Shown one piece after another: positions 2,247-63,012 of a stretch of DNA of 64,000 nt (position 1 is the stretch's first letter; each line of letters opens with the position of its first letter). This DNA comes from Escherichia phage VerenaGrendelmeier_Bas101. A program made the position numbers and the translations under genes. The stretch lies in sequence record PQ850631.1; one strand, 5' to 3'. The notes beneath the pieces are model-generated. The model saw nothing but the letters and a program-made list of their open reading frames with translations. It made no database searches and was not told the DNA's origin.

Positions 2247-4622
2247 ATGAAAATTCTTGGCATAAAACTCTGGGAGAAGACGCAACCAGAAGCCGAACCA
2301 GCGGAGATGCCGCCAGGCGACCCATTGGCACCGTTTGAACGCCTGGAAAGGCGCGGCAGCGGCCAACGCTGGGATAAGACCGAAAGCAACCGCCCGACCT
2401 TTAAAACCGTTGATGACTTTCCTTTATATGAGCCTGATATCAACGGGGACGGTGTTGCAATCATTAAAGGTCGCTCAGTAGATTCAGCAACCGTATCCAA
2501 AAAAGTTATGGATAATGCCTTAAAGAACATAAGTTCAGAAGGGCAGGTGAATCCATACACAGTCCCTATTCAGTTGCAAAACTGGTACTTATCGCAATCA
2601 TTTATCGGATATCAAGCTTGCGCCATCATCGCGCAGCACTGGCTAGTGAACAAGGCTTGTTCCATGGTAGGCCGCGATGCGGTCCGTAAAGGCTGGGAAG
2701 TCAAATCCAGCTCTGAGTCGGAATTGTCAGTACAGGCAAGCGAACGCCTAAAGCAAATTGATAAAGAATTTAATATCAAAGAGCACTTAGTTGAAGCCGA
2801 ACGATTCAAGAATATTTTTGGCATCCGCGTCATCATATTTGATGTGCGCAGTGATGACCCAGAATATTATAGCAAACCTTTTAACATCGATGGCGTGACA
2901 AAGGGGTCTTATAAGGGAATCATTCAGGTTGACCCTTATTGGATGATGCCATTCTTGACATCTGAAAACACTGCAGACCCTGCATCACAGCATTTTTATG
3001 ATCCAGAATATTGGGTGATCAGCGGACAACGTTATCACCGCAGCCACCTCATAATCTTGCGCAACGATGAGCCAGCTGATATTCTCAAGCCGACTTATAT
3101 CTATGGCGGCATTCCTTTGACTCAGCAGATTTATGAACGTATCTATGCCGCTGAACGTACCGCTAACGAAGCTCCATTGCTGGCGATGTCTAAGCGTACA
3201 ACCACGCTGCGGACCGACGTTGACAAGGCGATTGCCAATGAGCGGTCGTTTGCCGAACGTTTGATGATGTGGATTAAGTACCGCGACAACTATGCGGTAA
3301 AAGTACTTGGTCAGAAAGAAGAGATGGACCAGTTTGACATCAACTTGTCAGACTTCGACAGCATCATCATGAACCAGTACCAGCTGGTGGCCGCAATCGC
3401 AAAAGTTCCGTCGACAAAACTGTTAGGGACGTCACCTAAAGGCTTTAACGCCACTGGTGAGTTCGAAATGGTCAGCTATCACGAAGAATTGGAGACTTGT
3501 CAGCAGCACGATTTGACGAAGATTCTTGACCGTCACTACAAAATCCTTTTGAAATCTGAAGGTGTTGAAGTCGACGTTAAAGTGGCATGGGAGCCAGTTG
3601 GTTCACTTACTGCTACTCAACTTGCAGAGATTAACGACAAACGAGCGAATACTGGTAAGACTCTCATTGATGCTGGCGTCATCTCCCCTGATGAAGAGCG
3701 CGACCGCATCAAAGACGACAAAAACAGCGGCTACAACCGTTTGCCAGAAGATACAGCAGAAGAAACCCCAGGGATGTCTCCAGAGAATATGGCATTGCTT
3801 GGCAAGTCCGCTGGTGAAGTTCTGCAAGGTAAGGCCGATATTGAACAGGCTAAGGCTGATGTTGTCAAGATGGGCGGCCAGTTCTATAGCGAGACTGGTA
3901 TCATGCCGGAAGGTGCCGCGCGCGGTGAGTTGGCAGAAAACCCTGACAGGGCACCAGTTGAGATTAACATGGATGATACCGATGACGAATCAAGCCATCA
4001 CGTTGATGTTCTAACGCAACTTAAAGAGGGTCTGGAGGGTATTGCTGACTATTACCTTAAAGAAGGTCAGGACGTGGATTTTGACCCTCAAAAAGATGCA
4101 AGGTCGGTGCAACCGTCTACGCTTCCAAGCGTAAAAGGAAATGTCGTAAACTTGCGACACAATGTAGGGAAGATGGATGCCGCATCGCTGCCTAAGATGA
4201 AGTTGCACGGGATGATTCTTGGTATTGAGAATCCTCGCAACAGCATTCGCAGGGGTAACAGTCTTGATGGTGAATGGGCAGTTAAGATGCCGCACCATTA
4301 CGGATTCATCAAAGGAACCAAGGGTGCTGATGGTGATGAAGTCGACTGCTTTGTTGGACCAAATATGAAGTCGCCTAAAGTATTCATCATTAACCAAAAT
4401 GATAATTATTCTGGCGAATTTGATGAACACAAGTGTATGCTTGGATTCGATTCAGCAGAAGAAGCGAAAGAAGCTTATCAGGCATCATTTGGTAACGGTT
4501 GGAATGGATTCGACTCAATCCACGAATTGGATGTAGACTCATTCAAGGAGTGGTTGAAGGGTGATTGCTCTCAAGCATATGGAGCACTCAATAATCCTAC
4601 TAATTCACCGAAGCAAGGTTGA
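2247..4622 (+). CDS. portal-like protein with C-terminal inorganic-pyrophosphatase-like domain
   Basis: large ORF after terminase; start moved to ATG 2247 behind AGGTGG RBS; C-terminal HHYGFIKGT..DGDEVDCFV and AEEAKEAYQASF resemble family I PPase. Confidence 0.55.
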   Translation: MKILGIKLWEKTQPEAEPAEMPPGDPLAPFERLERRGSGQRWDKTESNRPTFKTVDDFPLYEPDINGDGVAIIKGRSVDSATVSKKVMDNALKNISSEGQVNPYTVPIQLQNWYLSQSFIGYQACAIIAQHWLVNKACSMVGRDAVRKGWEVKSSSESELSVQASERLKQIDKEFNIKEHLVEAERFKNIFGIRVIIFDVRSDDPEYYSKPFNIDGVTKGSYKGIIQVDPYWMMPFLTSENTADPASQHFYDPEYWVISGQRYHRSHLIILRNDEPADILKPTYIYGGIPLTQQIYERIYAAERTANEAPLLAMSKRTTTLRTDVDKAIANERSFAERLMMWIKYRDNYAVKVLGQKEEMDQFDINLSDFDSIIMNQYQLVAAIAKVPSTKLLGTSPKGFNATGEFEMVSYHEELETCQQHDLTKILDRHYKILLKSEGVEVDVKVAWEPVGSLTATQLAEINDKRANTGKTLIDAGVISPDEERDRIKDDKNSGYNRLPEDTAEETPGMSPENMALLGKSAGEVLQGKADIEQAKADVVKMGGQFYSETGIMPEGAARGELAENPDRAPVEINMDDTDDESSHHVDVLTQLKEGLEGIADYYLKEGQDVDFDPQKDARSVQPSTLPSVKGNVVNLRHNVGKMDAASLPKMKLHGMILGIENPRNSIRRGNSLDGEWAVKMPHHYGFIKGTKGADGDEVDCFVGPNMKSPKVFIINQNDNYSGEFDEHKCMLGFDSAEEAKEAYQASFGNGWNGFDSIHELDVDSFKEWLKGDCSQAYGALNNPTNSPKQG

Positions 4623-16170: not shown

Positions 16171-16703
16171 TGGCTATCGATTTACTGTCATATAGTCTAT
16201 CAAACAGAAGCTTCACGATAAAGAGCTTCAACCTTGGAGAAGTATCCACGCTTGGATGGGCCATAGTCAACGTCAAAATAAGACTCCAAGCGAAGATATT
16301 CAAAAACCAAAGGGAAGACGGCAGCTATATTGTCGATGGCAGAGTAAAGATGCCGCGAATACTCACTGTCACCGTGATAGCGCAAACGAAAAGTGCATCA
16401 GATGCAATAGCTAAAATGCTGCAAAACAGGTCGACTATATACACAATTAATTCCCGTGGTCTAATATTCGAACGTATGGTGCTGCAAAATAACAACTTCA
16501 GCCAGGACGCTGACAATATAACGTCTCAGCCCATACAATTGGTCTTCCATGAGATATTAACACAGCAGGATGTGTCTATTCAAACAGCGCAGGCAGGCGA
16601 CTCAACAGTAATAGAGCGCGGCATTGCATACATAAAAGAAACTTCTGCCAGCGTCACTGGCGTCGCTACAAAGGTGATGAATGGTATCAAGGGGATGTTC
16701 TGA
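16170..16703 (+). CDS. hypothetical tail protein
   Basis: 177-aa ORF. Confidence 0.4.
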   Translation: MAIDLLSYSLSNRSFTIKSFNLGEVSTLGWAIVNVKIRLQAKIFKNQREDGSYIVDGRVKMPRILTVTVIAQTKSASDAIAKMLQNRSTIYTINSRGLIFERMVLQNNNFSQDADNITSQPIQLVFHEILTQQDVSIQTAQAGDSTVIERGIAYIKETSASVTGVATKVMNGIKGMF

Positions 16704-48652: not shown

Positions 48653-50323
48653 ATGTCAATTAATAATGACAATCTTCCAGAGGATACAGGTGATGAATTT
48701 GGTGCAATCTTTGACGAAATTCAAGATGCAGGCGTTTCGGAAGAAATGCAGGCAGCAGAGCAGCAAGGCACCAGAGCTAAAATCAGCCTTCAACACAAAG
48801 CCGTTGAAAAAGATTCAGAGCGCATGGAGTGTTACGGTGAAGAAGACTTGGTTGAAAGAGCACGCTTGCTCGCCTCACTTCAGGTAATCAAGTTCCCTCA
48901 CTACAAGCCGACCAAAGATGACTTCGTTCTACAGGCAGACCGGACGAGTGACATGAACCGCTATGCGGTGTTCGACGCGTTGTTTGATAAGGGAAGTGGC
49001 ATTGTTCCATTCCCTCACAAAGATACTTTTCGTGGGCGCTTAGTCGACCATCGCGGCGAAACATTCACTGACCGTACCTTGGAAGTCACAGAGATAGTTG
49101 CCGCTGTCGACGCAGCAGGGCTGTCTAACCCAAACTCACGTCAGGTTGCTCAATCCTATAAGGAATGGGCCATGCGTTATCAGCGCGACGACCTGATGGA
49201 CTTCTTCTACAAGAAGCTGCCTGAATGGGACGGTACTGCGCGCATCGAGAAATACCTTATCGAGCTATTCCGACCGTTCGATACAGAGTTAAACCGACAA
49301 ATCGGTGTGTATTTTTGGCTATCGCTCTACAACCGCCTGACCAACCCTGGCTGTCAAGCGCCAATCTCCATCGCGCTCATCGGCGGCCAGAACGCAGGGA
49401 AGAGTTATTTTAGCAAGCTGCTTTGCGAAGCTATTATGAACGACCGCCACGCAACACCGATTCCGTTGAACTTAGCCGCGCAAAACTTCAACCCGTTCTT
49501 GCGAGCTATTACGGGTCGCTCGATTATCGCGAACGTCGGCGAGATGACAGGCTTTAAAAAGGCCGACATCGAAAACATGAAAGCATTCCTGACTAAGACG
49601 GAAGATGACCTGGACTTCAAATTTGAAGATACGCAGGTTAAACCACGCCAGTGGATTGCTATCATGGACGGCAACGAATACGCAGGCATGCAGCGTGATG
49701 ACACGGGCAACCGTCGTGTGTATCCTATCTTTGTTGGCCAACTCGCCGACAAGGACGGGCAACCGAACTGGTCGAAAGATTTCCAAGCTGACCTTTCCAC
49801 TTTGAAAGAAGACGTTTGGCAGCTTATGGCTGAGTGCGCTGCGTGGATGGAGAAGCACGGCGAAGCAGGCTATAACGCGTTTGTTGGTGAAACATCTCGC
49901 ATGCTTACTGAGTTCAGTAAAAACGAGATGGAACGCGCTCGCGGCGTTATCCGTGATGAGATGGTTGACAACGACCTTGTTGAAGTCGTCATCACCGCGC
50001 CTTATGATCGACATCACAGCGGACGCTGGCACATCACCAGTGGTGCTATTGCTATGGGATTCAGAGCGAAGTGCGGCAAGTCGCCTTTCTCTCGTACCCT
50101 TGCGCCGCACATGTCGAAGCTTGGTTTTGAGCCTGCAACCTATCGCAACCAGCGCGGTTACTTTACGCCGCTGATTAAGAATGAAGCAGGGGAATACATT
50201 TCTGATTTGATGACCATCTTAGCGTATCTTATCCGCGATGAGTCTGACCCTGAAGATATTGAATTCTTGAAGAAGGTTATCGAGCGTAAACGTTCTTTGG
50301 GAAGAGATAAGGATGAATTCTGA
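48653..50323 (+). CDS. primase-associated P-loop ATPase/helicase (VirE / D5-like)
   Basis: 556 aa; Walker A IGGQNAGKSY; overall resemblance to phage/plasmid primase C-terminal ATPase. Confidence 0.5.
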   Translation: MSINNDNLPEDTGDEFGAIFDEIQDAGVSEEMQAAEQQGTRAKISLQHKAVEKDSERMECYGEEDLVERARLLASLQVIKFPHYKPTKDDFVLQADRTSDMNRYAVFDALFDKGSGIVPFPHKDTFRGRLVDHRGETFTDRTLEVTEIVAAVDAAGLSNPNSRQVAQSYKEWAMRYQRDDLMDFFYKKLPEWDGTARIEKYLIELFRPFDTELNRQIGVYFWLSLYNRLTNPGCQAPISIALIGGQNAGKSYFSKLLCEAIMNDRHATPIPLNLAAQNFNPFLRAITGRSIIANVGEMTGFKKADIENMKAFLTKTEDDLDFKFEDTQVKPRQWIAIMDGNEYAGMQRDDTGNRRVYPIFVGQLADKDGQPNWSKDFQADLSTLKEDVWQLMAECAAWMEKHGEAGYNAFVGETSRMLTEFSKNEMERARGVIRDEMVDNDLVEVVITAPYDRHHSGRWHITSGAIAMGFRAKCGKSPFSRTLAPHMSKLGFEPATYRNQRGYFTPLIKNEAGEYISDLMTILAYLIRDESDPEDIEFLKKVIERKRSLGRDKDEF

Positions 50324-50970
50324 TGAATAAAGCAATCAACATCGCTAAATTCTTTCAACATCTTGGTGAACTGAACAAAGAAAGTGACGTTCACGGCGAA
50401 GAAATGAACCGGATGATCTCAACCGTGTTGCGTGGCTTTGGTTATGATAAGGACTCAATCACTTGCAAGCGTACAAAGCTTGTTGATGAGTCTTATCTTT
50501 ACTACGTAGAGTTGCGCATCGGGAAAGATGTGATGATCATTGACCCTAAACTGGAAGGGGCGCACTGTTTTGGCGCTCACCCTCGTGCGAGTGAATTCAA
50601 GGGTCGCGGTCGCAACCGAATCCAGAAGCTTGATGACGCAGGTGACTTGAACATTGCCATGTTCCTTAAAGAGTTCCTTGCGCTACCGAAGGTTGCATCA
50701 TCCACTGGTCGTGATGACCCTTGCAAGATTGGATTCCGAACTAAAGATTTGCGCAATGCGCTACGCAAGAAGGGATTTGTGCCTTCTTATGACAACGTCG
50801 CCGCGCTGATGGCTTCAATGGAGGAAGCTGAAGCGATGGACAAGGTGCGCGGCTATTTCCTGAATACAGGCTTCACCATGTATGAATGGCACACGAAGGG
50901 ATTGACTGTCGCCGACTTCATCTATTCATTAGAGCAGAAGTATGTACGCAATATGCAGGCCACAGGATAA
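50323..50970 (+). CDS. hypothetical early protein
   Basis: 215-aa ORF coupled to upstream gene. Confidence 0.45.
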   Translation: MNKAINIAKFFQHLGELNKESDVHGEEMNRMISTVLRGFGYDKDSITCKRTKLVDESYLYYVELRIGKDVMIIDPKLEGAHCFGAHPRASEFKGRGRNRIQKLDDAGDLNIAMFLKEFLALPKVASSTGRDDPCKIGFRTKDLRNALRKKGFVPSYDNVAALMASMEEAEAMDKVRGYFLNTGFTMYEWHTKGLTVADFIYSLEQKYVRNMQATG

Positions 50971-58736: not shown

Positions 58737-58744
58737 CCTGTGGT

Positions 58745-58980
58745 ATGTGAGGATTTATTATCGGATAAAGCGATTGATTTGTGCAAATCTATTAGAGGGT
58801 CATGGGTAGTGAGGATTGTGACGTGAATTTTGTGTCTTGAATATGTGTGCGAATCTGGAAGATTATTGTACTGTGGTGCTGTGGGATTGTAGAGGGAATC
58901 ACTAGGAATTGGAGCGTGTACCGTGGTGTGTGGTCCTGTAGGCTGCGCCGTCTATGGGATTGTCGCTTGAAATTAAAAAG
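58745..58980. repeat. G+T-rich non-coding stretch with GGATTGT repeats
   Basis: plus strand has very few C; GAGGATTGTG at about 58811, GGGATTGTAG at about 58883, GGGATTGTCG at about 58966, plus degenerate copies. Confidence 0.5.
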
Positions 58981-59021
58981 GAGATATAGTTAGCTGGCTA
59001 ACCTTACGCATAGAATTTAAG

Positions 59022-59310
59022 CGTATAATGACGTAAGATTTGGACCTATCCGTAGTTCACTCCACACACTTCTATGGTGCGCCGCGACTGGGTTCAGTGG
59101 TACATCTTACGGATGATACGGATGATACGCGTCGCCGCTATACTTTATACAACTTTGAAAAAAACAATTAACTCCATTTTGAATTAATTTAAATTAATTT
59201 TTTTCTACATCCTCATACTTATACTAAACTTATATTTATACGTATTATCCGTAAGATATAAGTAAAAACAAAGACTTGCGGCAATACGGATGATACGTCA
59301 CGATACGCTT
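59022..59310. repeat. control region B: same 14-mer CGTATAATGACGTA, iterons and AT-rich tract as region A
   Basis: 14-mer 59022-59035; CTTACGGATGATACGGATGATACGCGTCGCCGCTA 59107-59140 matches 6637-6666; iteron copies at 59046-59055, 59243-59257, 59282-59307; AT-rich 59145-59240. Confidence 0.6.
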
Positions 59311-59472
59311 CAACCAGCCAGCAGCGGCTAAGTCATTGATTTGCATAACAAGCGACGAAAGGGATGGATTTCTTTTATACGTATCAAACAGTACACCACG
59401 CACCACGGTCCGTTATCCATCCAGCACTATGATTTGTGTACGTTTATAGCCATAATGAACATCAATCTGCAC

Positions 59473-59501
59473 TTGAATATAATGTCCATCCATTGTATAA
59501 T
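59473..59501 (+). promoter_or_regulatory. sigma70-like promoter (TTGAAT-17-TATAAT)
   Basis: -35 59473-59478, -10 59496-59501 with TG immediately upstream. Confidence 0.4.
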
Positions 59502-59521
59502 TCACACTATTAATTTGCACT

Positions 59522-60010
59522 ATGGGATTTTGCACTATGAGTCAAGATTATGTAGCGATGCCTGAAGACTTTGAAGACCCGCGATTCGCAGAGCACAATC
59601 AGGCTTTATTCGATGAGTTCATTGACCTTGTTATTCAGGGCCATGACATGCGCGCAGCTTTTGCACTAGTATTTGGAATGGAAGTTGCAACGGATAACTA
59701 CACTGGCCAGCGAATCCTTTGCACGCAACGCAATCCATACTACAAGATGCGCTTCAAAAAGCGTATGGAAGAGATGCCACTCAAGGATTTGTGGAGCGTA
59801 AAAGGTGCAATTCACAATTTGGTCAAGCTTGTGCGTGATCCAGAAGTCGCGGCGTCAGCCAAGCTTAATGCTATTCGTGAACTGAATATCATCTATGGCA
59901 TCACGATGATTGATGAAAACGGCAATAGTAAAATGGGCCGTTCTATGGACGATTTCTACAAGGATTTTGGAGAGGCGGCCAAAGAAGGCGAGCAATTCTC
60001 CCGCCACTAG
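59522..60010 (+). CDS. hypothetical protein
   Basis: 162-aa ORF; start region overlaps two TTTGCACTAT copies; start codon uncertain (59522 or 59537). Confidence 0.4.
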   Translation: MGFCTMSQDYVAMPEDFEDPRFAEHNQALFDEFIDLVIQGHDMRAAFALVFGMEVATDNYTGQRILCTQRNPYYKMRFKKRMEEMPLKDLWSVKGAIHNLVKLVRDPEVAASAKLNAIRELNIIYGITMIDENGNSKMGRSMDDFYKDFGEAAKEGEQFSRH

Positions 60011-60029
60011 CCAATTTGCACTATAAAAC

Positions 60030-60063
60030 GGCCCTAGAACACATTGTCTCCACTTCTAGGGCC
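60030..60063 (+). terminator. hairpin after 59522..60010 (weak U-tract)
   Basis: GGCCCTAGAA / TTCTAGGGCC 10-bp stem with 14-nt loop. Confidence 0.35.
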
Positions 60064-60124
60064 ATCGGTAATACGACGGGGAAGGTTGCAACCGTAAACG
60101 CGTTAGAAAGTGTATTATTATAAG

Positions 60125-60388
60125 TCATCTTTTAGTCACCTTACGTAACAATTTACGACCTTCAACCGTCCAATCGAACGACTCCACCAGCAGATTCGCA
60201 CTATAACCTAAGATGATGCGCCCTTTCTCGTTATCGACCCGCCAACAAGTCTCGAATAGCATTCGATTTGCACTATTAACTATCGCCGCAACGCGCGTTG
60301 GGTAAACGCAATTTGCACTATGGTCGTAAAGGGATAAGGTGCGACCACTTCCGATGGACAATGTAGCGATGAGAATAAGCGTATTCAT
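60125..60388 (-). CDS. hypothetical small protein
   Basis: 87-aa ORF; three in-frame TTTGCACTAT copies translate as SAN tripeptides; weak support. Confidence 0.3.
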   Translation of the reverse strand: MNTLILIATLSIGSGRTLSLYDHSANCVYPTRVAAIVNSANRMLFETCWRVDNEKGRIILGYSANLLVESFDWTVEGRKLLRKVTKR

Positions 60389-60438
60389 AAGCCACCAATT
60401 TGCACTATGAAAAGCGACCCCGAAGGGCCGCCATTCGA

Positions 60439-61065
60439 TTAGATAATCTGGAATGTGTAGGACTTGTTGCCGAACTCAAAGTTCAAGCGTCCAGCTTCTT
60501 TAAGCTTCATGCGGAAGCGAATGTGCTTACTATCCGGTAAGCCCAGCGCGGCGAACGCCACGCGGACCGATTTGAACTCGCCTACACCCTCGACCATAAC
60601 GCCGTTACGCGTGAGACGCTTTTGCGCCACTTCCTTGTTATCCCAACTTTTTGCAATACCTTCGCTATTCGAACGGCGATGGGAAGGAGTTCCATTTTGC
60701 ACTACGCAATTTGCACTATCGTTTAGGCCGCTTTTAACGAAGGCTTCATACTCTTCGTCGGTCATCGCGTCGAGTTCTTCCTGGGTCGGCTCGGCCTTTT
60801 TAACGACCGCACGCGCCTTATGCGTTTTTACATCGCTGGACACTTCCTCGCGCGGCTTCGCGTCGGGAATGGGCGATTCGTTGGACGGCTCATCGAGCGC
60901 GTTTAAGGACTCGATTAACGCGATTACGCGAGTCTCGGCGGTACGGCGGTCCGCAAATTTCTTAATCGGCTTCGAACCGGAATTTGCATTATAAAATGCA
61001 ACGAGGTCGGCGGTCTTAGTTGCGATAACGTCGCCGCTAGTCGAGAAACGATTTAAGCTAACCAT
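60439..61065 (-). CDS. hypothetical protein
   Basis: 208 aa; conserved initiation region ATAGGAGTTCATT-ATG. Confidence 0.45.
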   Translation of the reverse strand: MVSLNRFSTSGDVIATKTADLVAFYNANSGSKPIKKFADRRTAETRVIALIESLNALDEPSNESPIPDAKPREEVSSDVKTHKARAVVKKAEPTQEELDAMTDEEYEAFVKSGLNDSANCVVQNGTPSHRRSNSEGIAKSWDNKEVAQKRLTRNGVMVEGVGEFKSVRVAFAALGLPDSKHIRFRMKLKEAGRLNFEFGNKSYTFQII

Positions 61066-61145
61066 AATGAACTCCTATTTGTTAGGGCGCTAGGCGCGAA
61101 AGAATTTTATTAAAGCGCCGCGCGCGACGCTCTAAAAATCCTCTC

Positions 61146-61460
61146 TTACTCTTCGTCGTCTTCGATTAATTCGAGGGCGAAGGCGTAAGCTTTGCTATCG
61201 TAATTAACTAAAACGGCGAGTTCGAACTCGTTAATAAACGCCGTTTTACCGCATAAATTTAATTCCGCATCGACTTCGAAGAATCCGTTTTCGTCGCGCT
61301 CTAAGCGAGAAGCAGCGAGTTGCTCGATTACCGTCGCGTCGTTAATTTCTTCGCCTAAGCGAACGCCGGAGAATTTCGCGAGAATTTCGCCGTAAGTAAG
61401 CGTAACGCCCTGGACTTCGGCGGTTGCGTTTTCGAGGGTAAAGCGGGTAACGATAGCCAT
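61146..61460 (-). CDS. small acidic protein
   Basis: 104 aa ending LIEDDEE; conserved initiation region CTAGGAGTTTATT-ATG. Confidence 0.45.
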   Translation of the reverse strand: MAIVTRFTLENATAEVQGVTLTYGEILAKFSGVRLGEEINDATVIEQLAASRLERDENGFFEVDAELNLCGKTAFINEFELAVLVNYDSKAYAFALELIEDDEE

Positions 61461-61600
61461 AATAAACTCCTAGTTGGGAGAGGCGTTAACGACCTATTCG
61501 TTAACTCATCCCGTCCCGATATGAGTACATTATAATATAGTGTAGAAAAAAGTAAAGCACTTTTTCGATAAAAATGCGATAAATTATTTTATCTTTTTTC

Positions 61601-61628
61601 TTTACTTCTTCGTACACTCGCGTATACT
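61601..61628 (+). promoter_or_regulatory. sigma70-like promoter (TTTACT-16-TATACT)
   Basis: within direct repeat CTTTACTTCTTCGTACACT also found at 62003. Confidence 0.45.
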
Positions 61629-61684
61629 TGTTTATATCGAGACGGGCGATGGCCCTTCCTTCTACTAGCATCGGGAGTTTTATT

Positions 61685-61987
61685 ATGACCACTTTAATCT
61701 CTTCTATCCTTACTTACGACGAAGACCGTTTAACCGTTCGCTCTCTTATCGCCGCCGTTAACGCGGAACTAGAATCCACCATTATTAAGGTCCGCGCGGT
61801 CGCTTTCGTCGGCCTTTCCTTCGACGATATTAAGTACGCCGAACGTAGCGCCATCCGCTTCGCGAAGACCGACGACGAAGCCGTTACCCTTATCGAGACG
61901 GTTACGCCGCGCGGCGAAGCGTTAATTATCGTCGAGTATATCGACGTAGAAGGCGATAAGGCTTATAAATATTTTATTGCAGAATAA
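61685..61987 (+). CDS. small acidic protein
   Basis: start at ATG 61685 behind GGGAGTTTTATT; 100 aa. Confidence 0.45.
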   Translation: MTTLISSILTYDEDRLTVRSLIAAVNAELESTIIKVRAVAFVGLSFDDIKYAERSAIRFAKTDDEAVTLIETVTPRGEALIIVEYIDVEGDKAYKYFIAE

Positions 61988-61998
61988 CGAAAAAGTGC

Positions 61999-62027
61999 TT
62001 TACTTCTTCGTACACTAAGACTATAAT
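61999..62027 (+). promoter_or_regulatory. sigma70-like promoter (TTTACT-17-TATAAT)
   Basis: -35 61999-62004, -10 62022-62027; paralogous to promoter at 61601. Confidence 0.5.
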
Positions 62028-62094
62028 GTTTTATATCGAGAGGGGATGAGGTAGCGAATAGGTCGCTACCCGCCCGACCAACTAGGAGATTATT

Positions 62095-62385
62095 ATGATT
62101 ACTTTAGCCGCTATCCGTTCCGCTCGCGTCGAGACTTCCGAAAACTCTAACGTATTTGGCGAAACCTTAGAGAGCGTTTATCTCTCTAACGTAGACGCAA
62201 CTATCGAACCTATTTATGAGCCGATCAACTTCCTCGACCTTTACAAGTATCGCGACGAGGACATCGTATCATCCCGCGTAACGATTAACGGCTTCGTCTA
62301 TACGATTACCGAAATCGGCGGCGAATATCTCGCTGTACCGCAACTCGGCGGCGAAGTAACTTATTTTAAAATTGTCTCCTTATAA
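62095..62385 (+). CDS. small acidic protein
   Basis: 96 aa; conserved initiation region CTAGGAGATTATT-ATG; 5' UTR hairpin GGTAGCG / CGCTACC 62050-62070. Confidence 0.45.
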   Translation: MITLAAIRSARVETSENSNVFGETLESVYLSNVDATIEPIYEPINFLDLYKYRDEDIVSSRVTINGFVYTITEIGGEYLAVPQLGGEVTYFKIVSL

Positions 62386-62404
62386 TATCCTTCCGTTACT
62401 AATA

Positions 62405-62430
62405 GGCCGCGCTTAGTCGCGGCTTTTCTT
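62405..62430 (+). terminator. rho-independent terminator
   Basis: GCCGCG / CGCGGC stem, 6-nt loop, then TTTTCTT. Confidence 0.55.
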
Positions 62431-62549
62431 CGTCCCTATCTCGATGCGCTTCTCCGCGAAAACTCCTTTATCCTTCCCTTCGTCGTCGCATAATCTTCGT
62501 CGAGATGCGCCTTAGTTCGCATAACAGGTATTACGTTAAATGGAGAACA

Positions 62550-63012
62550 TCGCGTAAGTCCTTGTTTTATATAGACACCTATATCGGACCGTTAGGGCGG
62601 GTCGCGTAAGTCGTTGTTTTATAAAGGCGCAAAACTTTCCCTTCGTTCCGAACTAAAACGAGGAATATGCCGACCCTTCGCCCGAAAATAGTACGCATGC
62701 GAAATCACATGCATCTCGAATAATCCCCACCGATATTATCCTACACGCAATCATTCGCTTTCGAATCATTATGCTTCATATTATTATGCGTCGAATCATT
62801 CGCTTTCGAATTGTAACGCTGGAAACTGTAACGGCGATTGATTATTGCGTTCGTGTGGTTTTTAGGGCATGGGTCTTTTGGTGCGTTTTGGTGCTTGATG
62901 GAATTTGCGGTACACTAATCAAAATACGACACATTTGGTCCACTAACTTTTCAAAGAAAAAGTCCTAGACAGTACCGTACTATTTTGTACCCACAGGAAT
63001 TTGCAGTACACT
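62550..63012. repeat. non-coding region with three families of direct repeats
   Basis: TCGCGTAAGTCnTTGTTTTATA at 62550 and 62602; AATCATTCGCTTTCGAAT at 62749 and 62794; GGAATTTGCrGTACACT at 62900 and 62996. Confidence 0.55.

Follow-up and report, generated by a model that had tools for sequence, protein, structure and literature searches.

The pac site of bacteriophage P1 consists of seven TGATCA/G hexamers that lie to either side of the cut within ~160 bp; it is read by PacA under the control of Dam methylation and serves headful packaging. In phage lambda, cosB contains the R3, R2, and R1 sites for gpNu1, in mixed orientation within ~120 bp and accompanied by an IHF-induced bend, and cosQ, which is present as a single copy, sets the precedent for a moving terminase that reads a signal in an orientation-dependent way. 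How small terminase subunits (TerS) choose viral DNA is still debated, with most purified TerS proteins binding DNA weakly or non-specifically (PMC9611059).

The array of short repeats described here, found in a 64,000-nucleotide stretch of DNA (the window) from a Wifcevirus, an Escherichia coli myophage, resembles P1 pac in that copies of a short motif lie near the terminase cut and adjoin the packaging genes, the P1 copies being read by the small terminase subunit. It differs from P1 pac in having 11-17 copies over 1-1.5 kb on one side of the cut, in lying within a 3.8-kb direct terminal repeat (DTR), and in containing no GATC. The order of cut site, small-terminase sites, and small-terminase gene would be shared with lambda cosB and with SPP1 pacL/pacR (PMC9611059), but in these phages no such site extends through a kilobase of coding DNA. 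Likenesses of another kind exist to Chi (GCTGGTGG), the polar recombination hotspot that RecBCD recognises: orientation relative to a DNA end, dispersed and unphased copies, turnover, and placement in any coding context. Real Chi arrays occupy the same 2 kb in relatives of the source phage. However, the array differs from Chi in sequence, is restricted to a single region of the phage instead of being genome-wide, and varies together with a phage protein. Origin iterons of the lambda O type (contigs L087 and L099) are also direct repeats with a near-identical core, TTTGCACTAC, but number 4-6 at a fixed 22-23 bp inside an initiator gene, whereas the array is irregular, extends over 1.5 kb, and is accompanied by no initiator homolog. 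Finally, the terminal-repeat arrays of T7 and the injection-stop region of T5 likewise place short repeats, with a function that is unsettled, at terminal repeats with defined ends; the T7 arrays are tandem 7-bp units and the T5 region is noncoding, however, and neither consists of one oriented motif dispersed within genes.

The motif array and the left genome end

Seven exact copies of TTTGCACTAT, all on the plus strand, occur in the window at the positions given in an initial annotation of this DNA (Table 1); 0.18 would be expected, and none of 100 shuffled sequences contained seven. The three plus-strand copies with one mismatch listed in that annotation were recovered as well, together with a fourth, inside the TerS gene, that had been overlooked. 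All 11 copies lie within 59514-60992, and the sole other one-mismatch match in the whole 64 kb is on the minus strand at 16377. Two weaker copies lengthen the array leftwards, giving a copy number of 11-13 on a single strand throughout. The six-base core, GCACTA, was counted 11 times on the plus strand and not once on the minus strand in 59424-60718, as against seven and five times, respectively, in the remaining window, where 13.9 would be expected on both strands together. These counts reveal neither a comparable motif density elsewhere in the window nor an avoidance of GCACTA in the rest of it (12 observed versus 13.9 expected). The upstream flank preference remarked on earlier also holds, with A at position -4 in 42 and T at position -3 in 49 of 62 sites from six lineages.

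Table 1. Features of the array region and of the left genome end, in window coordinates.
Feature	Position	Strand	Basis or remark
Nested inverted repeats with AT-rich core	59016..59313		Physical left end 59175|59176, 5-7 bp left of dyad centre
Direct terminal repeat (DTR), 3,784 bp	59176..62959		Start of Mansfield record and WFC DTR copies
Weak motif copy, core GCACTAT only	59424..59430	+	Upstream of promoter
Predicted sigma-70-like promoter of TerS gene, TTGAAT-17-TATAAT	59473..59501	+	Consensus scan, 10/12 matches
Degenerate copy TTCACACTAT, 2 mismatches	59501..59510	+	First base is last T of -10 hexamer
Exact motif copy	59514..59523	+	Predicted 5' leader of TerS gene
Exact motif copy	59529..59538	+	Overlaps TerS ATG
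Small terminase (TerS) gene, 157 aa	59537..60010	+	Profile, structure, and annotation matches
Motif copy TTTGCACTAG	59660..59669	+	Inside TerS; encodes Phe-Ala-Leu
Exact motif copy	60015..60024	+	5 nt past TerS stop codon, ahead of hairpin
Terminator-like hairpin GGCCCTAGAA...TTCTAGGGCC	60030..60063		Between convergent genes; terminator annotated at equivalent place in WFH
Conserved small gene, 87 aa	60125..60388	-	Signal-peptide-like N-terminus, two conserved Cys; three motif copies
CCACCAGC, reverse complement of E. coli Chi	60184..60191	+	3 bp before motif copy at 60195; the only one in the DTR
Motif copy TTCGCACTAT	60195..60204	+	Is TTTGCACTAT in Mansfield, WFH, ECML-117, and FEC19
Exact motif copy	60267..60276	+	In ORF 60125..60388
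Exact motif copy	60312..60321	+	In ORF 60125..60388
Exact motif copy	60399..60408	+	Intergenic; adjoins hairpin 60414-60431
Conserved 208-aa gene, phrog_4730	60439..61065	-	Three motif copies
Motif copy TTTGCACTAC	60696..60705	+	Missing in ECML-117
Exact motif copy	60710..60719	+	Missing in ECML-117
Doubtful copy TTTGCATTAT	60983..60992	+	Core broken; not kept in WFH or ECML-117

The array starts at the TerS promoter, crosses the TerS gene, and continues into the convergent genes, with irregular spacing of 10-355 bp over 1.5 kb. Seven of the 11 strong copies are within genes, six of these seven being antisense to the gene; copies are absent from the neighbouring 0.8 kb of noncoding DNA and are placed in coding sequence instead. 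ORF 60125..60388, on the minus strand, holds three copies in a common frame, at distances of 72 and 45 bp, as described previously; x-Ser-Ala-Asn is encoded by each of them. The shared frame is not in itself significant, since a TAG closes frame 2 of the reverse complement and leaves only two frames open. Homologs of this 87-aa gene were found in Kyle, L036, L038, and L039, and one motif copy encodes a conserved Asn-Ser-Ala tripeptide. Although the ORF is thus a conserved gene, it cannot account for the array, as had been considered earlier, because copies are also intergenic, within a plus-strand gene, and elsewhere-placed in other lineages.

The array is located in the left half of the DTR, within its first 0.25-1.8 kb. 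The record of phage Mansfield, for which a DTR was predicted by PhageTerm, begins at window position 59176, and the two DTR copies of WFC, identical across 3,784 bp, place the right boundary at 62959; a terminal repeat of ~3.7 kb has been reported (Korf et al., 2019; PMC6563267). Measured inwards from the left boundary, the array begins at 248 bp, with its first exact copy at 338 bp and its last copy at ~1.8 kb. This boundary falls within nested inverted repeats, with arms at 59101-59123/59238-59260 (87% complementary), 59156-59171/59194-59209, and 59016-59035/59294-59313, and, judging from the sequence, these repeats probably form the cleavage-site structure, separate from the motif array. 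An equal inverted-repeat architecture surrounds the genome end of Kyle and the presumptive ends of L036 and L043, ~320 bp and ~370 bp upstream of the TerS start, respectively. An Rfam scan of 58-64 kb gave nothing beyond one chance-level match.

Distribution of the array and its correlation with TerS

The identity of TerS is secure. A profile built from four homologs matched the small terminase of E217 (PDB 7UXE) with E=3.9e-76, an AF2 model matched the same structure with a Foldseek probability of 1.00, and gp002 of Mansfield is annotated as terminase small subunit. In 10 of 10 lineages, the TerS ATG is preceded, at a distance of 32-54 nt, by a perfect TATAAT. Between this hexamer and the ATG, three motif copies are present in the source phage, and L036, L038, L039, and L040 are arranged similarly, whereas the TerS leader has no copy in Kyle, L037, L041, L042, and L043 (5 of 10 lineages). 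The 208-aa gene neighbours TerS in array-bearing as well as array-less lineages; its product matched nothing in Pfam or the PDB, and a homology search retrieved near-identical sequences only. The single-sequence model of this protein was unusable (mean pLDDT 38.9).

A 12-bp asymmetric site, RATTYGCACTAY, with GCACTA as its core, forms the same array in 10 lineages, namely the source phage and nine others, among which TerS identity is 43-69%. Within -200 to +1700 of the TerS start, GCACTA was observed 107 times on the TerS strand and never on the opposite strand in these lineages. For the whole genome of Kyle, 14 copies were counted per DTR, versus 5 in ~66 kb of unique DNA. The array comprises 11-17 copies, all to one side of the cut, and spans 1-1.4 kb in the relatives and ~1.5 kb in the source phage. 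Individual sites turn over between lineages with density maintained. Within Wifcevirus, the motif columns show no extra conservation (16 of 110 vary, versus 185 of 1,591 others; p=0.36), and ECML-117 is without three of the motif copies. The sites encode Phe-Ala-Leu and Asp-Leu-His-Tyr in the plus-strand gene and x-Ser-Ala-Asn and Val-Val-Gln in the minus-strand genes, and some are intergenic. Their presence in coding sequence of both strands indicates a signal at the DNA level, and its retention by nine related lineages argues that this signal is real and so far undescribed. Searches of full-text literature for the motif and its complement returned unrelated primer sequences only, and the Wifcevirus and Pbunavirus papers checked do not mention it. 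No helical phasing was detected by Rayleigh tests at 10-11 bp (p>0.3), and a scan of 6-40 bp gave nothing above R=0.18; the only periodic signal is one of 3 nt, ascribed to codons, and the closest spacings between sites are 10-15 bp.

An equivalent second array was not found in the array-less relatives PB1, MyoSmar, L015, L021, L025-27, and L031, and L035, also array-less, contains only a tandem 8-bp repeat. MyoSmar, a Serratia phage, possesses a DTR of the same architecture, with Chi copies and without a GCACTA array. A scan of viral contigs for paired copies yielded, among the matches listed, mostly chance pairs or tandem iterons, and no dispersed array outside the TerS family.

Comparison of 14 array-type with 13 array-less-type TerS proteins showed that only two alignment columns separate all of them, the DNA having been inspected for 10 array-bearing and ~13 array-less lineages, and four of the 14 (P0006, P0009, P0011, and P0013) being classed by sequence type only, with their DNA uninspected. 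Position 32 (source-phage numbering) is hydrophobic in array-bearing and Lys/Arg in array-less lineages, and position 64 is Gln/Lys/Arg in the former and Glu in the latter; both are within the predicted N-terminal helical DNA-binding domain. The correlation probably represents a single evolutionary event in one clade, within which the motif itself does not vary. A further covariation, between a change of Arg59 to Tyr in the TerS of L038 and the relaxation of its site to G[C/T]ACTA, was considered and set aside, the link being weakened by L041 and L043, which retain Arg yet carry GTACTA copies. One clade with a multi-copy, oriented candidate word beside TerS and sister lineages without it, two residues apart, constitute a natural contrast, and this contrast makes a clean and cheap experimental test feasible.

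Proposed recognition of the array by the terminase

We consider the array most likely to be a multi-site recognition array for the terminase, although we hold this reading tentatively. The many helix-turn-helix domains of the ring-shaped TerS, the solved homolog of which is a decamer, would engage several sites of the same orientation, through and beyond the TerS gene itself, and would thereby load the terminase onto concatemeric phage DNA. The large subunit would then cut the palindromic structure 250-340 bp upstream (59175|59176), and the array may also signal to a translocating terminase that the terminal repeat has been entered. In the source phage, TerS could, in addition, restrict its own synthesis by way of the three copies located between the -10 hexamer and the ATG. 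We infer TerS as the reader, as well as the order of events, the direction of packaging, and the autoregulation, from the arrangement of these elements.

Among the roles proposed in the initial annotation, a packaging-recognition series is the one to be favoured, because the copies lie 250-1,800 bp inside the left end, begin at the TerS promoter, and co-occur with the two TerS substitutions; for an iteron array and a promoter family, the hallmarks are lacking, as discussed below. The proposal of an operator array agrees locally with the three copies between -10 hexamer and ATG in the source phage, but not in general, given the five of 10 lineages with none. As in known small terminases, which recognise repeated sites beside or inside their own gene (PMC9611059), the array adjoins the physical genome end and is situated beside and inside the small-terminase gene. 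A ring of ten DNA-binding domains would also naturally prefer direct repeats, which we count in favour of terminase recognition. Furthermore, the small terminase of E217, a phage of a type without the array, showed no appreciable DNA binding in vitro (PMC9611059), and the array-less Pbunavirus relatives have been reported to be headful packagers (PMC12390725); headful, non-binding relatives of this kind fit a sequence-specific recognition that arose later in the array-bearing clade.

Several observations argue against recognition by the terminase. Known terminase sites are compact (120-300 bp, or roughly 20-300 bp for the class of pac and cosB sites), whereas the array covers ~1.5 kb and is unphased, so that its lack of periodicity, its span of 1-1.5 kb, and the turnover of its sites all weigh against this reading. 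So does the invariance of the motif while TerS diverged to 43% identity. Inverted boxes that differ from lineage to lineage lie on either side of the cut site, whether or not the array is present, and look like more conventional terminase sites. The DTR of MyoSmar, having the same architecture without the array, likewise counts against terminase recognition. Were the array read by something other than TerS, it would represent a polar signal of the Chi kind, placed among genuine Chi arrays where a phage genome ends. Either reading helps to define how the 3.8-kb terminal repeats are recognised and made, with relevance to the engineering of therapeutic phages of the Wifcevirus and Pbunavirus types.

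Other candidate readers and functions

A Chi-like polar signal, read by an enzyme moving from the left genome end, be it a helicase-nuclease of host or phage origin or a translocating terminase, is possible but unlikely. Many redundant, oriented, unphased copies would secure recognition by such an enzyme, in the terminase variant in the manner of lambda cosQ, and the habits of the array are those of Chi: 107:0 orientation, dispersed and unphased spacing, turnover at steady density, and indifference to the coding strand. A true Chi array is co-extensive with the motif array in eight of 10 lineages, and CCACCAGC occurs 50:1 on the motif strand in the array region, the orientation active for a RecBCD entering at the left end. 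The motif is also invariant across lineages, as Chi is, whereas the cut-site boxes vary. However, the reverse complement of the motif, ATAGTGCAAAT, is unlike Chi, and no enterobacterial enzyme is known to us to read it. The DTR of MyoSmar contains copies of Chi without a GCACTA array, and the spacing between Chi and motif copies shows no fixed coupling, only a weak trend. Nor would such a signal account for the two TerS positions that change with the array, unless the terminase itself is the reader. We regard as unlikely, too, the composite proposal that the array is a second, previously unknown polar signal of the genome end, Chi-like and read by an inward-travelling enzyme, in which the reader would be either a host nuclease or helicase other than the Chi activity of RecBCD or a moving terminase, and the phage would write the word redundantly into its DTR beside genuine Chi, thereby controlling the fate of that end.

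It is rather unlikely that the array serves a different DNA-binding protein, either a clade-specific phage protein or a host factor, for transcriptional control or silencing of the early genes encoded in the repeat or for a nucleoprotein cap. The copies between the TerS -10 hexamer and the ATG are operator-like in the source phage, L036, L038, and L039, but the leader of half of the lineages has none, and most copies are far from promoters, in the convergence zone of two transcription units. At least eight unannotated ORFs common to the source phage and Kyle are missing in MyoSmar, so that another phage-encoded reader is conceivable; one example, 50323-50970 (215 aa), is present also in L041 and L042. 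A conserved host factor would suit the invariance of the motif across diverged phages; comparison by eye with E. coli regulator consensuses (DnaA box, marbox, IHF, TrpR, sigma-54, the sigma-S -10 element, and RfaH ops), gave no convincing match. The two neighbouring proteins are poor candidates for such a reader, the 87-aa protein because it looks secreted and the 208-aa protein because it is equally conserved in lineages without the array.

That the copies are iterons of a replication origin at the genome end is improbable. They are direct repeats in one orientation with an AT-rich stretch (59150-59240) nearby, in several relatives the noncoding region is closely preceded by a gene for a VapE-like primase-helicase, and unrelated viral contigs carry TTTGCACTAC as true iterons. 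Those iterons, however, number five, recur every 22-23 bp, and lie within a Phage_rep_O/HTH_36 gene, whereas the copies of the array are 10-355 bp apart and unphased; the initiators of L087 and L099 have no homolog in the window, and no Pfam initiator domain was detected in the genes neighbouring the array. The copies moreover shun the adjacent 0.8 kb of noncoding DNA. The iteron array suggested in the initial annotation thus does not agree with the irregular spacing over 1.5 kb and the lack of an adjacent initiator gene.

That the array pauses or stops a stepwise entry of the DNA, in the manner of the first-step-transfer stop of T5 at the inner end of its terminal repeat, is very improbable. 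The small genes of the DTR, which stand behind strong predicted sigma-70-like promoters, resemble a pre-early region, and, were the right end to enter first, the entering repeat would have the array and the adjacent noncoding block at its inner end. The T5 signal, however, is noncoding and made up of mixed repeats and palindromes rather than of a single oriented motif, and MyoSmar is without the array. Least credible is a promoter family for a host or phage RNA polymerase, put forward earlier as one for a factor not encoded here, since CACTAT, although weakly -10-like and superficially similar to the ends of T7-type promoters, never coincides with a predicted -35/-10 pair in a DTR that has separate strong sigma-70-like promoters, seven of 11 strong copies fall within genes and six of the seven are antisense, the motif is limited to one 1.5-kb stretch rather than preceding a class of genes, the annotation of Mansfield, a well-annotated relative, includes neither a phage RNA polymerase nor a sigma factor, and, on the minus strand, many copies in relatives read GTAGTGC, which would place G at the essential -11 position.

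A same-strand array in the terminal repeat

The phage belongs to Wifcevirus, being one of the E. coli myophages grouped with ECML-117, WFC, WFH, and Mansfield, and shares ~95% identity with those records. Wifcevirus-group phages carry direct terminal repeats (DTRs) of ~3.7 kb (PMC6563267). The Mansfield record starts at window position 59176, with its repeat there predicted by PhageTerm, and WFC contains two identical repeat copies of 3,784 bp mapping to 59176-62959; thus, within the repeat, the array described here runs from 0.25 to 1.8 kb.

Seven exact copies of the motif TTTGCACTAT are present in the 64 kb, always on the plus strand and between 59514 and 60719, against an expectation of 0.18, and none of 100 shuffles gave seven. 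Four plus-strand copies (59660, 60195, 60696, and 60983) carry one mismatch, whereas the sole one-mismatch match outside the array in the whole window lies at 16377 on the minus strand. The same-orientation cluster reported in the initial annotation is therefore real and far beyond chance; the copies listed there were correct, but 59660 had been overlooked. A degenerate copy, TTCACACTAT at 59501, extends the array leftward, followed further left by a second weak copy with the core GCACTAT at 59424. The core GCACTA was found 11 times on the plus strand and never on the minus strand within the array, and elsewhere in the window 7 and 5 times, respectively, close to the Markov-model expectation, indicating neither comparable density nor avoidance outside the array.

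The array surrounds the gene for the small terminase (TerS). A four-sequence profile of this gene family matched the decameric TerS from Pseudomonas phage E217 (PDB 7UXE; E=3.9e-76), and an AlphaFold model of the window protein (mean pLDDT 74.5) matched it with a Foldseek probability of 1.00; the product is a small terminase. Given the position of the predicted promoter, the copies at 59501, 59514, and 59529 lie between its -10 hexamer and the ATG.

Tracing of TerS homologs via annotated phages, IMG/VR contigs, and public assemblies revealed the array in the same place, and on the TerS strand only, in ten lineages: Wifcevirus, Pantoea phage Kyle, and eight metagenomic lineages (L036-L043) whose TerS proteins are 43-69% identical to that of the window. 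Each lineage has 7-14 GCACTA copies (up to 17 with GTACTA included), spread between about -110 and +1,450 as counted from the start of TerS. Summed over -200 to +1700 in the ten lineages, GCACTA occurs 107 times on the TerS strand and 0 times on the opposite strand. Built from 62 sites across six lineages, the site logo reads RATTYGCACTAY, with no information outside these 12 bp. The complete Kyle genome has 14 copies in each repeat versus 5 in ~66 kb of unique DNA. The array was not found in PB1-like Pbunavirus, Serratia phage MyoSmar, or about ten other TerS-bearing lineages, and a search of array-less lineages for an alternative second array found none. Overall, the terminal repeat harbours in this array a cis element that is conserved and strictly polar, and of which we found no published description.

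Copy number, polarity, and region are kept across lineages, whereas single sites often lie at non-homologous positions. Spacing between copies is 10-355 bp, and no helical or other periodicity of the sites was found. Within Wifcevirus, the motif columns showed no extra conservation over their surroundings, and ECML-117 lacks three of the copies. The word encodes Phe-Ala-Leu or Asp-Leu-His-Tyr in the TerS gene and x-Ser-Ala-Asn or Val-Val-Gln in the minus-strand genes, and is also present in intergenic DNA; its presence in both coding strands and in noncoding DNA points to an orientation-dependent signal at the level of the DNA. The initial annotation had also considered that coding sequence might account for the in-frame copies in the 87-aa ORF (60125-60388). 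This ORF is indeed a conserved gene, with homologs in Kyle (L013), L036, L038, and L039, and one motif copy within it encodes a conserved Asn-Ser-Ala, but it is unable to explain the whole array. Members of its protein family share two invariant cysteines and a hydrophobic N-terminus resembling a signal peptide, suggesting that the terminal repeat probably encodes a small secreted or periplasmic product.

Features of the array region and of related records (window coordinates unless a record is named)
Feature	Location	Strand	Remark
215-aa ORF	50323-50970	+	beside VapE-like primase-helicase gene
Nested inverted repeats at left end	59016-59313		centre about 59181
Corresponding inverted-repeat structures	L014 3477-3823; L036 4610-4756; L043 3518-3749
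TerS promoter (predicted)	59473-59501	+	sigma-70-type consensus TTGAAT-17-TATAAT, directly upstream of TerS
TerS gene	59537-60010	+	profile and structure match to 7UXE
Motif copy	59660	+	within TerS gene
Motif copy	60015	+	5 nt past TerS stop codon
Convergent genes	60125-60388; 60439-61065	-	enclose motif copies
Motif copy	60399	+	in gap between the convergent genes
CCACCAGC arrays	Kyle L013/L166 255-1972; L037, L039-L043 -144 to +1600 from TerS start	TerS strand
TTTGCACTAC iterons	L087 7456-7546; L099 8891-9035

Candidate readers of the array

Among the roles proposed initially, packaging recognition is favoured, and a multi-site recognition array for terminase is the best, if tentative, explanation. 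In an alignment of 14 array-type TerS proteins with 13 of the array-less type—with DNA inspected for 10 array-bearing and ~13 array-less lineages, and sequence type as the sole basis for classing 4 of the 14 array-type proteins—just two columns told the groups apart. Position 32 (window numbering) is hydrophobic in array-bearing and Lys/Arg in array-less TerS, and position 64 is Gln/Lys/Arg and Glu, respectively. Both map to helices (22-33 and 56-65) of the predicted N-terminal helical domain, and Arg65-Asn66, directly after position 64, is invariant within the array clade. An acidic to neutral or basic swap is the sort of change to be expected where a DNA-binding surface gains a new contact. 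This split fits the reports that E217 TerS shows no detectable DNA binding (PMC9611059) and that packaging in Pbunaviruses appears to be headful, with the genomes permuted (PMC12390725). The correlation is circumstantial and probably reflects a single evolutionary event. The array offers a direct, cheap test of DNA recognition by a structurally known small-terminase family.

A Chi-like polar signal is the main rival, although we consider it unlikely. In 8 of the ten lineages, CCACCAGC (the reverse complement of E. coli Chi) also forms an array over the same 2 kb; by the established rule, its orientation is the one that halts RecBCD arriving from the left end. Across the ten lineages, the left 2 kb of the repeat contains 50 copies on the TerS strand versus 1 on the other. 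Kyle has 9 per repeat copy versus 4 in unique DNA (10 in the first 4.6 kb of L013, one just outside the repeat), and array-less MyoSmar has 4. In several lineages the TerS promoter spacer holds one copy. Wifcevirus retains one (60184-60191), abutting the motif copy at 60195, and L036 has none; both have lost the Chi array. The Chi and GCACTA arrays share the same statistical habits and are both invariant between lineages, hence the rank of this rival, but no fixed Chi-motif spacing was found.

Recognition by another DNA-binding protein, the other main rival, is quite improbable. At least eight unannotated ORFs are common to the window phage and Kyle but not MyoSmar and could encode an alternative reader; among these clade-restricted ORFs is the 215-aa ORF, shared with Kyle, L041, and L042, not detected in MyoSmar, and without a Pfam or PHROG match. 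An operator role, also suggested initially, is plausible in the window phage only, given the copies between the -10 hexamer and ATG; in five lineages the TerS leader is free of copies.

The remaining readings, including an injection-stop signal, are minor. Iterons were rejected: unrelated viral contigs (L087 and L099) carry true iterons, TTTGCACTAC, with almost the same core, as five copies 22-23 bp apart that encode a repeated peptide (GSANSA, LVVQ) within a replication-organiser gene (HTH_36/Phage_rep_O), whereas the array has neither this geometry nor a homolog of that protein. The proposed promoter family likewise failed, since no copy coincides with a -35/-10 pair, distinct strong promoters are present in the repeat, 7 of the 11 strong copies are intragenic (6 of those antisense), and the annotations of relatives list neither a phage RNA polymerase nor a sigma factor.

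Genome ends and neighbouring elements

At the physical left end, nested inverted repeats enclose an AT-rich core, and their dyad centre is 5-7 bp away from the end itself; they probably form the structure at which terminase cleaves. The arms consist of lineage-specific boxes in both orientations, for example TACGGATGATACG/ATCCGTA in the window; L041 has TATCCGCAAGAT and array-less L015 has TATCCGAT. Similar boxes are present whether or not a lineage bears the array (e.g., array-less L015 and L045) and look like conventional cut-site elements, which would make the GCACTA array an added layer and tempers the case for TerS as its reader.

A conserved element, AATTTGC(G/A)GTACACT(AATCA), flanks the right DTR boundary (62959) on both sides (62901-62920 and 62998-63012), with a Kyle counterpart, AATTTCACAGTACACTAATCA, just beyond that phage's own right boundary (L013 about 3623-3650); it starts with AATTTGC, as does the array motif, and may be a right-end signal. 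Between the terminator of the last upstream gene and the repeat, a ~240-bp noncoding block (58740-58975) is strongly G+T-rich on the plus strand, with many TGTG/GTGG runs and no ORF or Rfam match.

Promoters of the TTTACT-16/17-TATAAT type lie within the repeat at 61529-61556 (minus), 61601-61628 (plus), and 61999-62027 (plus), and a 65-nt inverted repeat (61458-61522/62033-62097, 82% complementary) and a 33-nt one flank the gene at 61685-61987; these duplicated promoter modules (61458-62097) look like an early-gene control region. Mansfield has six 7-bp CGACCCA units just outside the repeat (L001 3843-3885), where the window has one, and L035 has ~20 tandem copies of an 8-bp TTCAAATC-like unit between about +2213 and +2395, counted from the start of TerS. 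Finally, a protein search with the 208-aa product of 60439-61065 returned >300 near-identical copies in public assemblies, many on contigs of ~68 kb labelled Escherichia coli and one labelled Salmonella; enterobacterial isolate assemblies thus commonly contain Wifcevirus genomes as contaminants or passengers.
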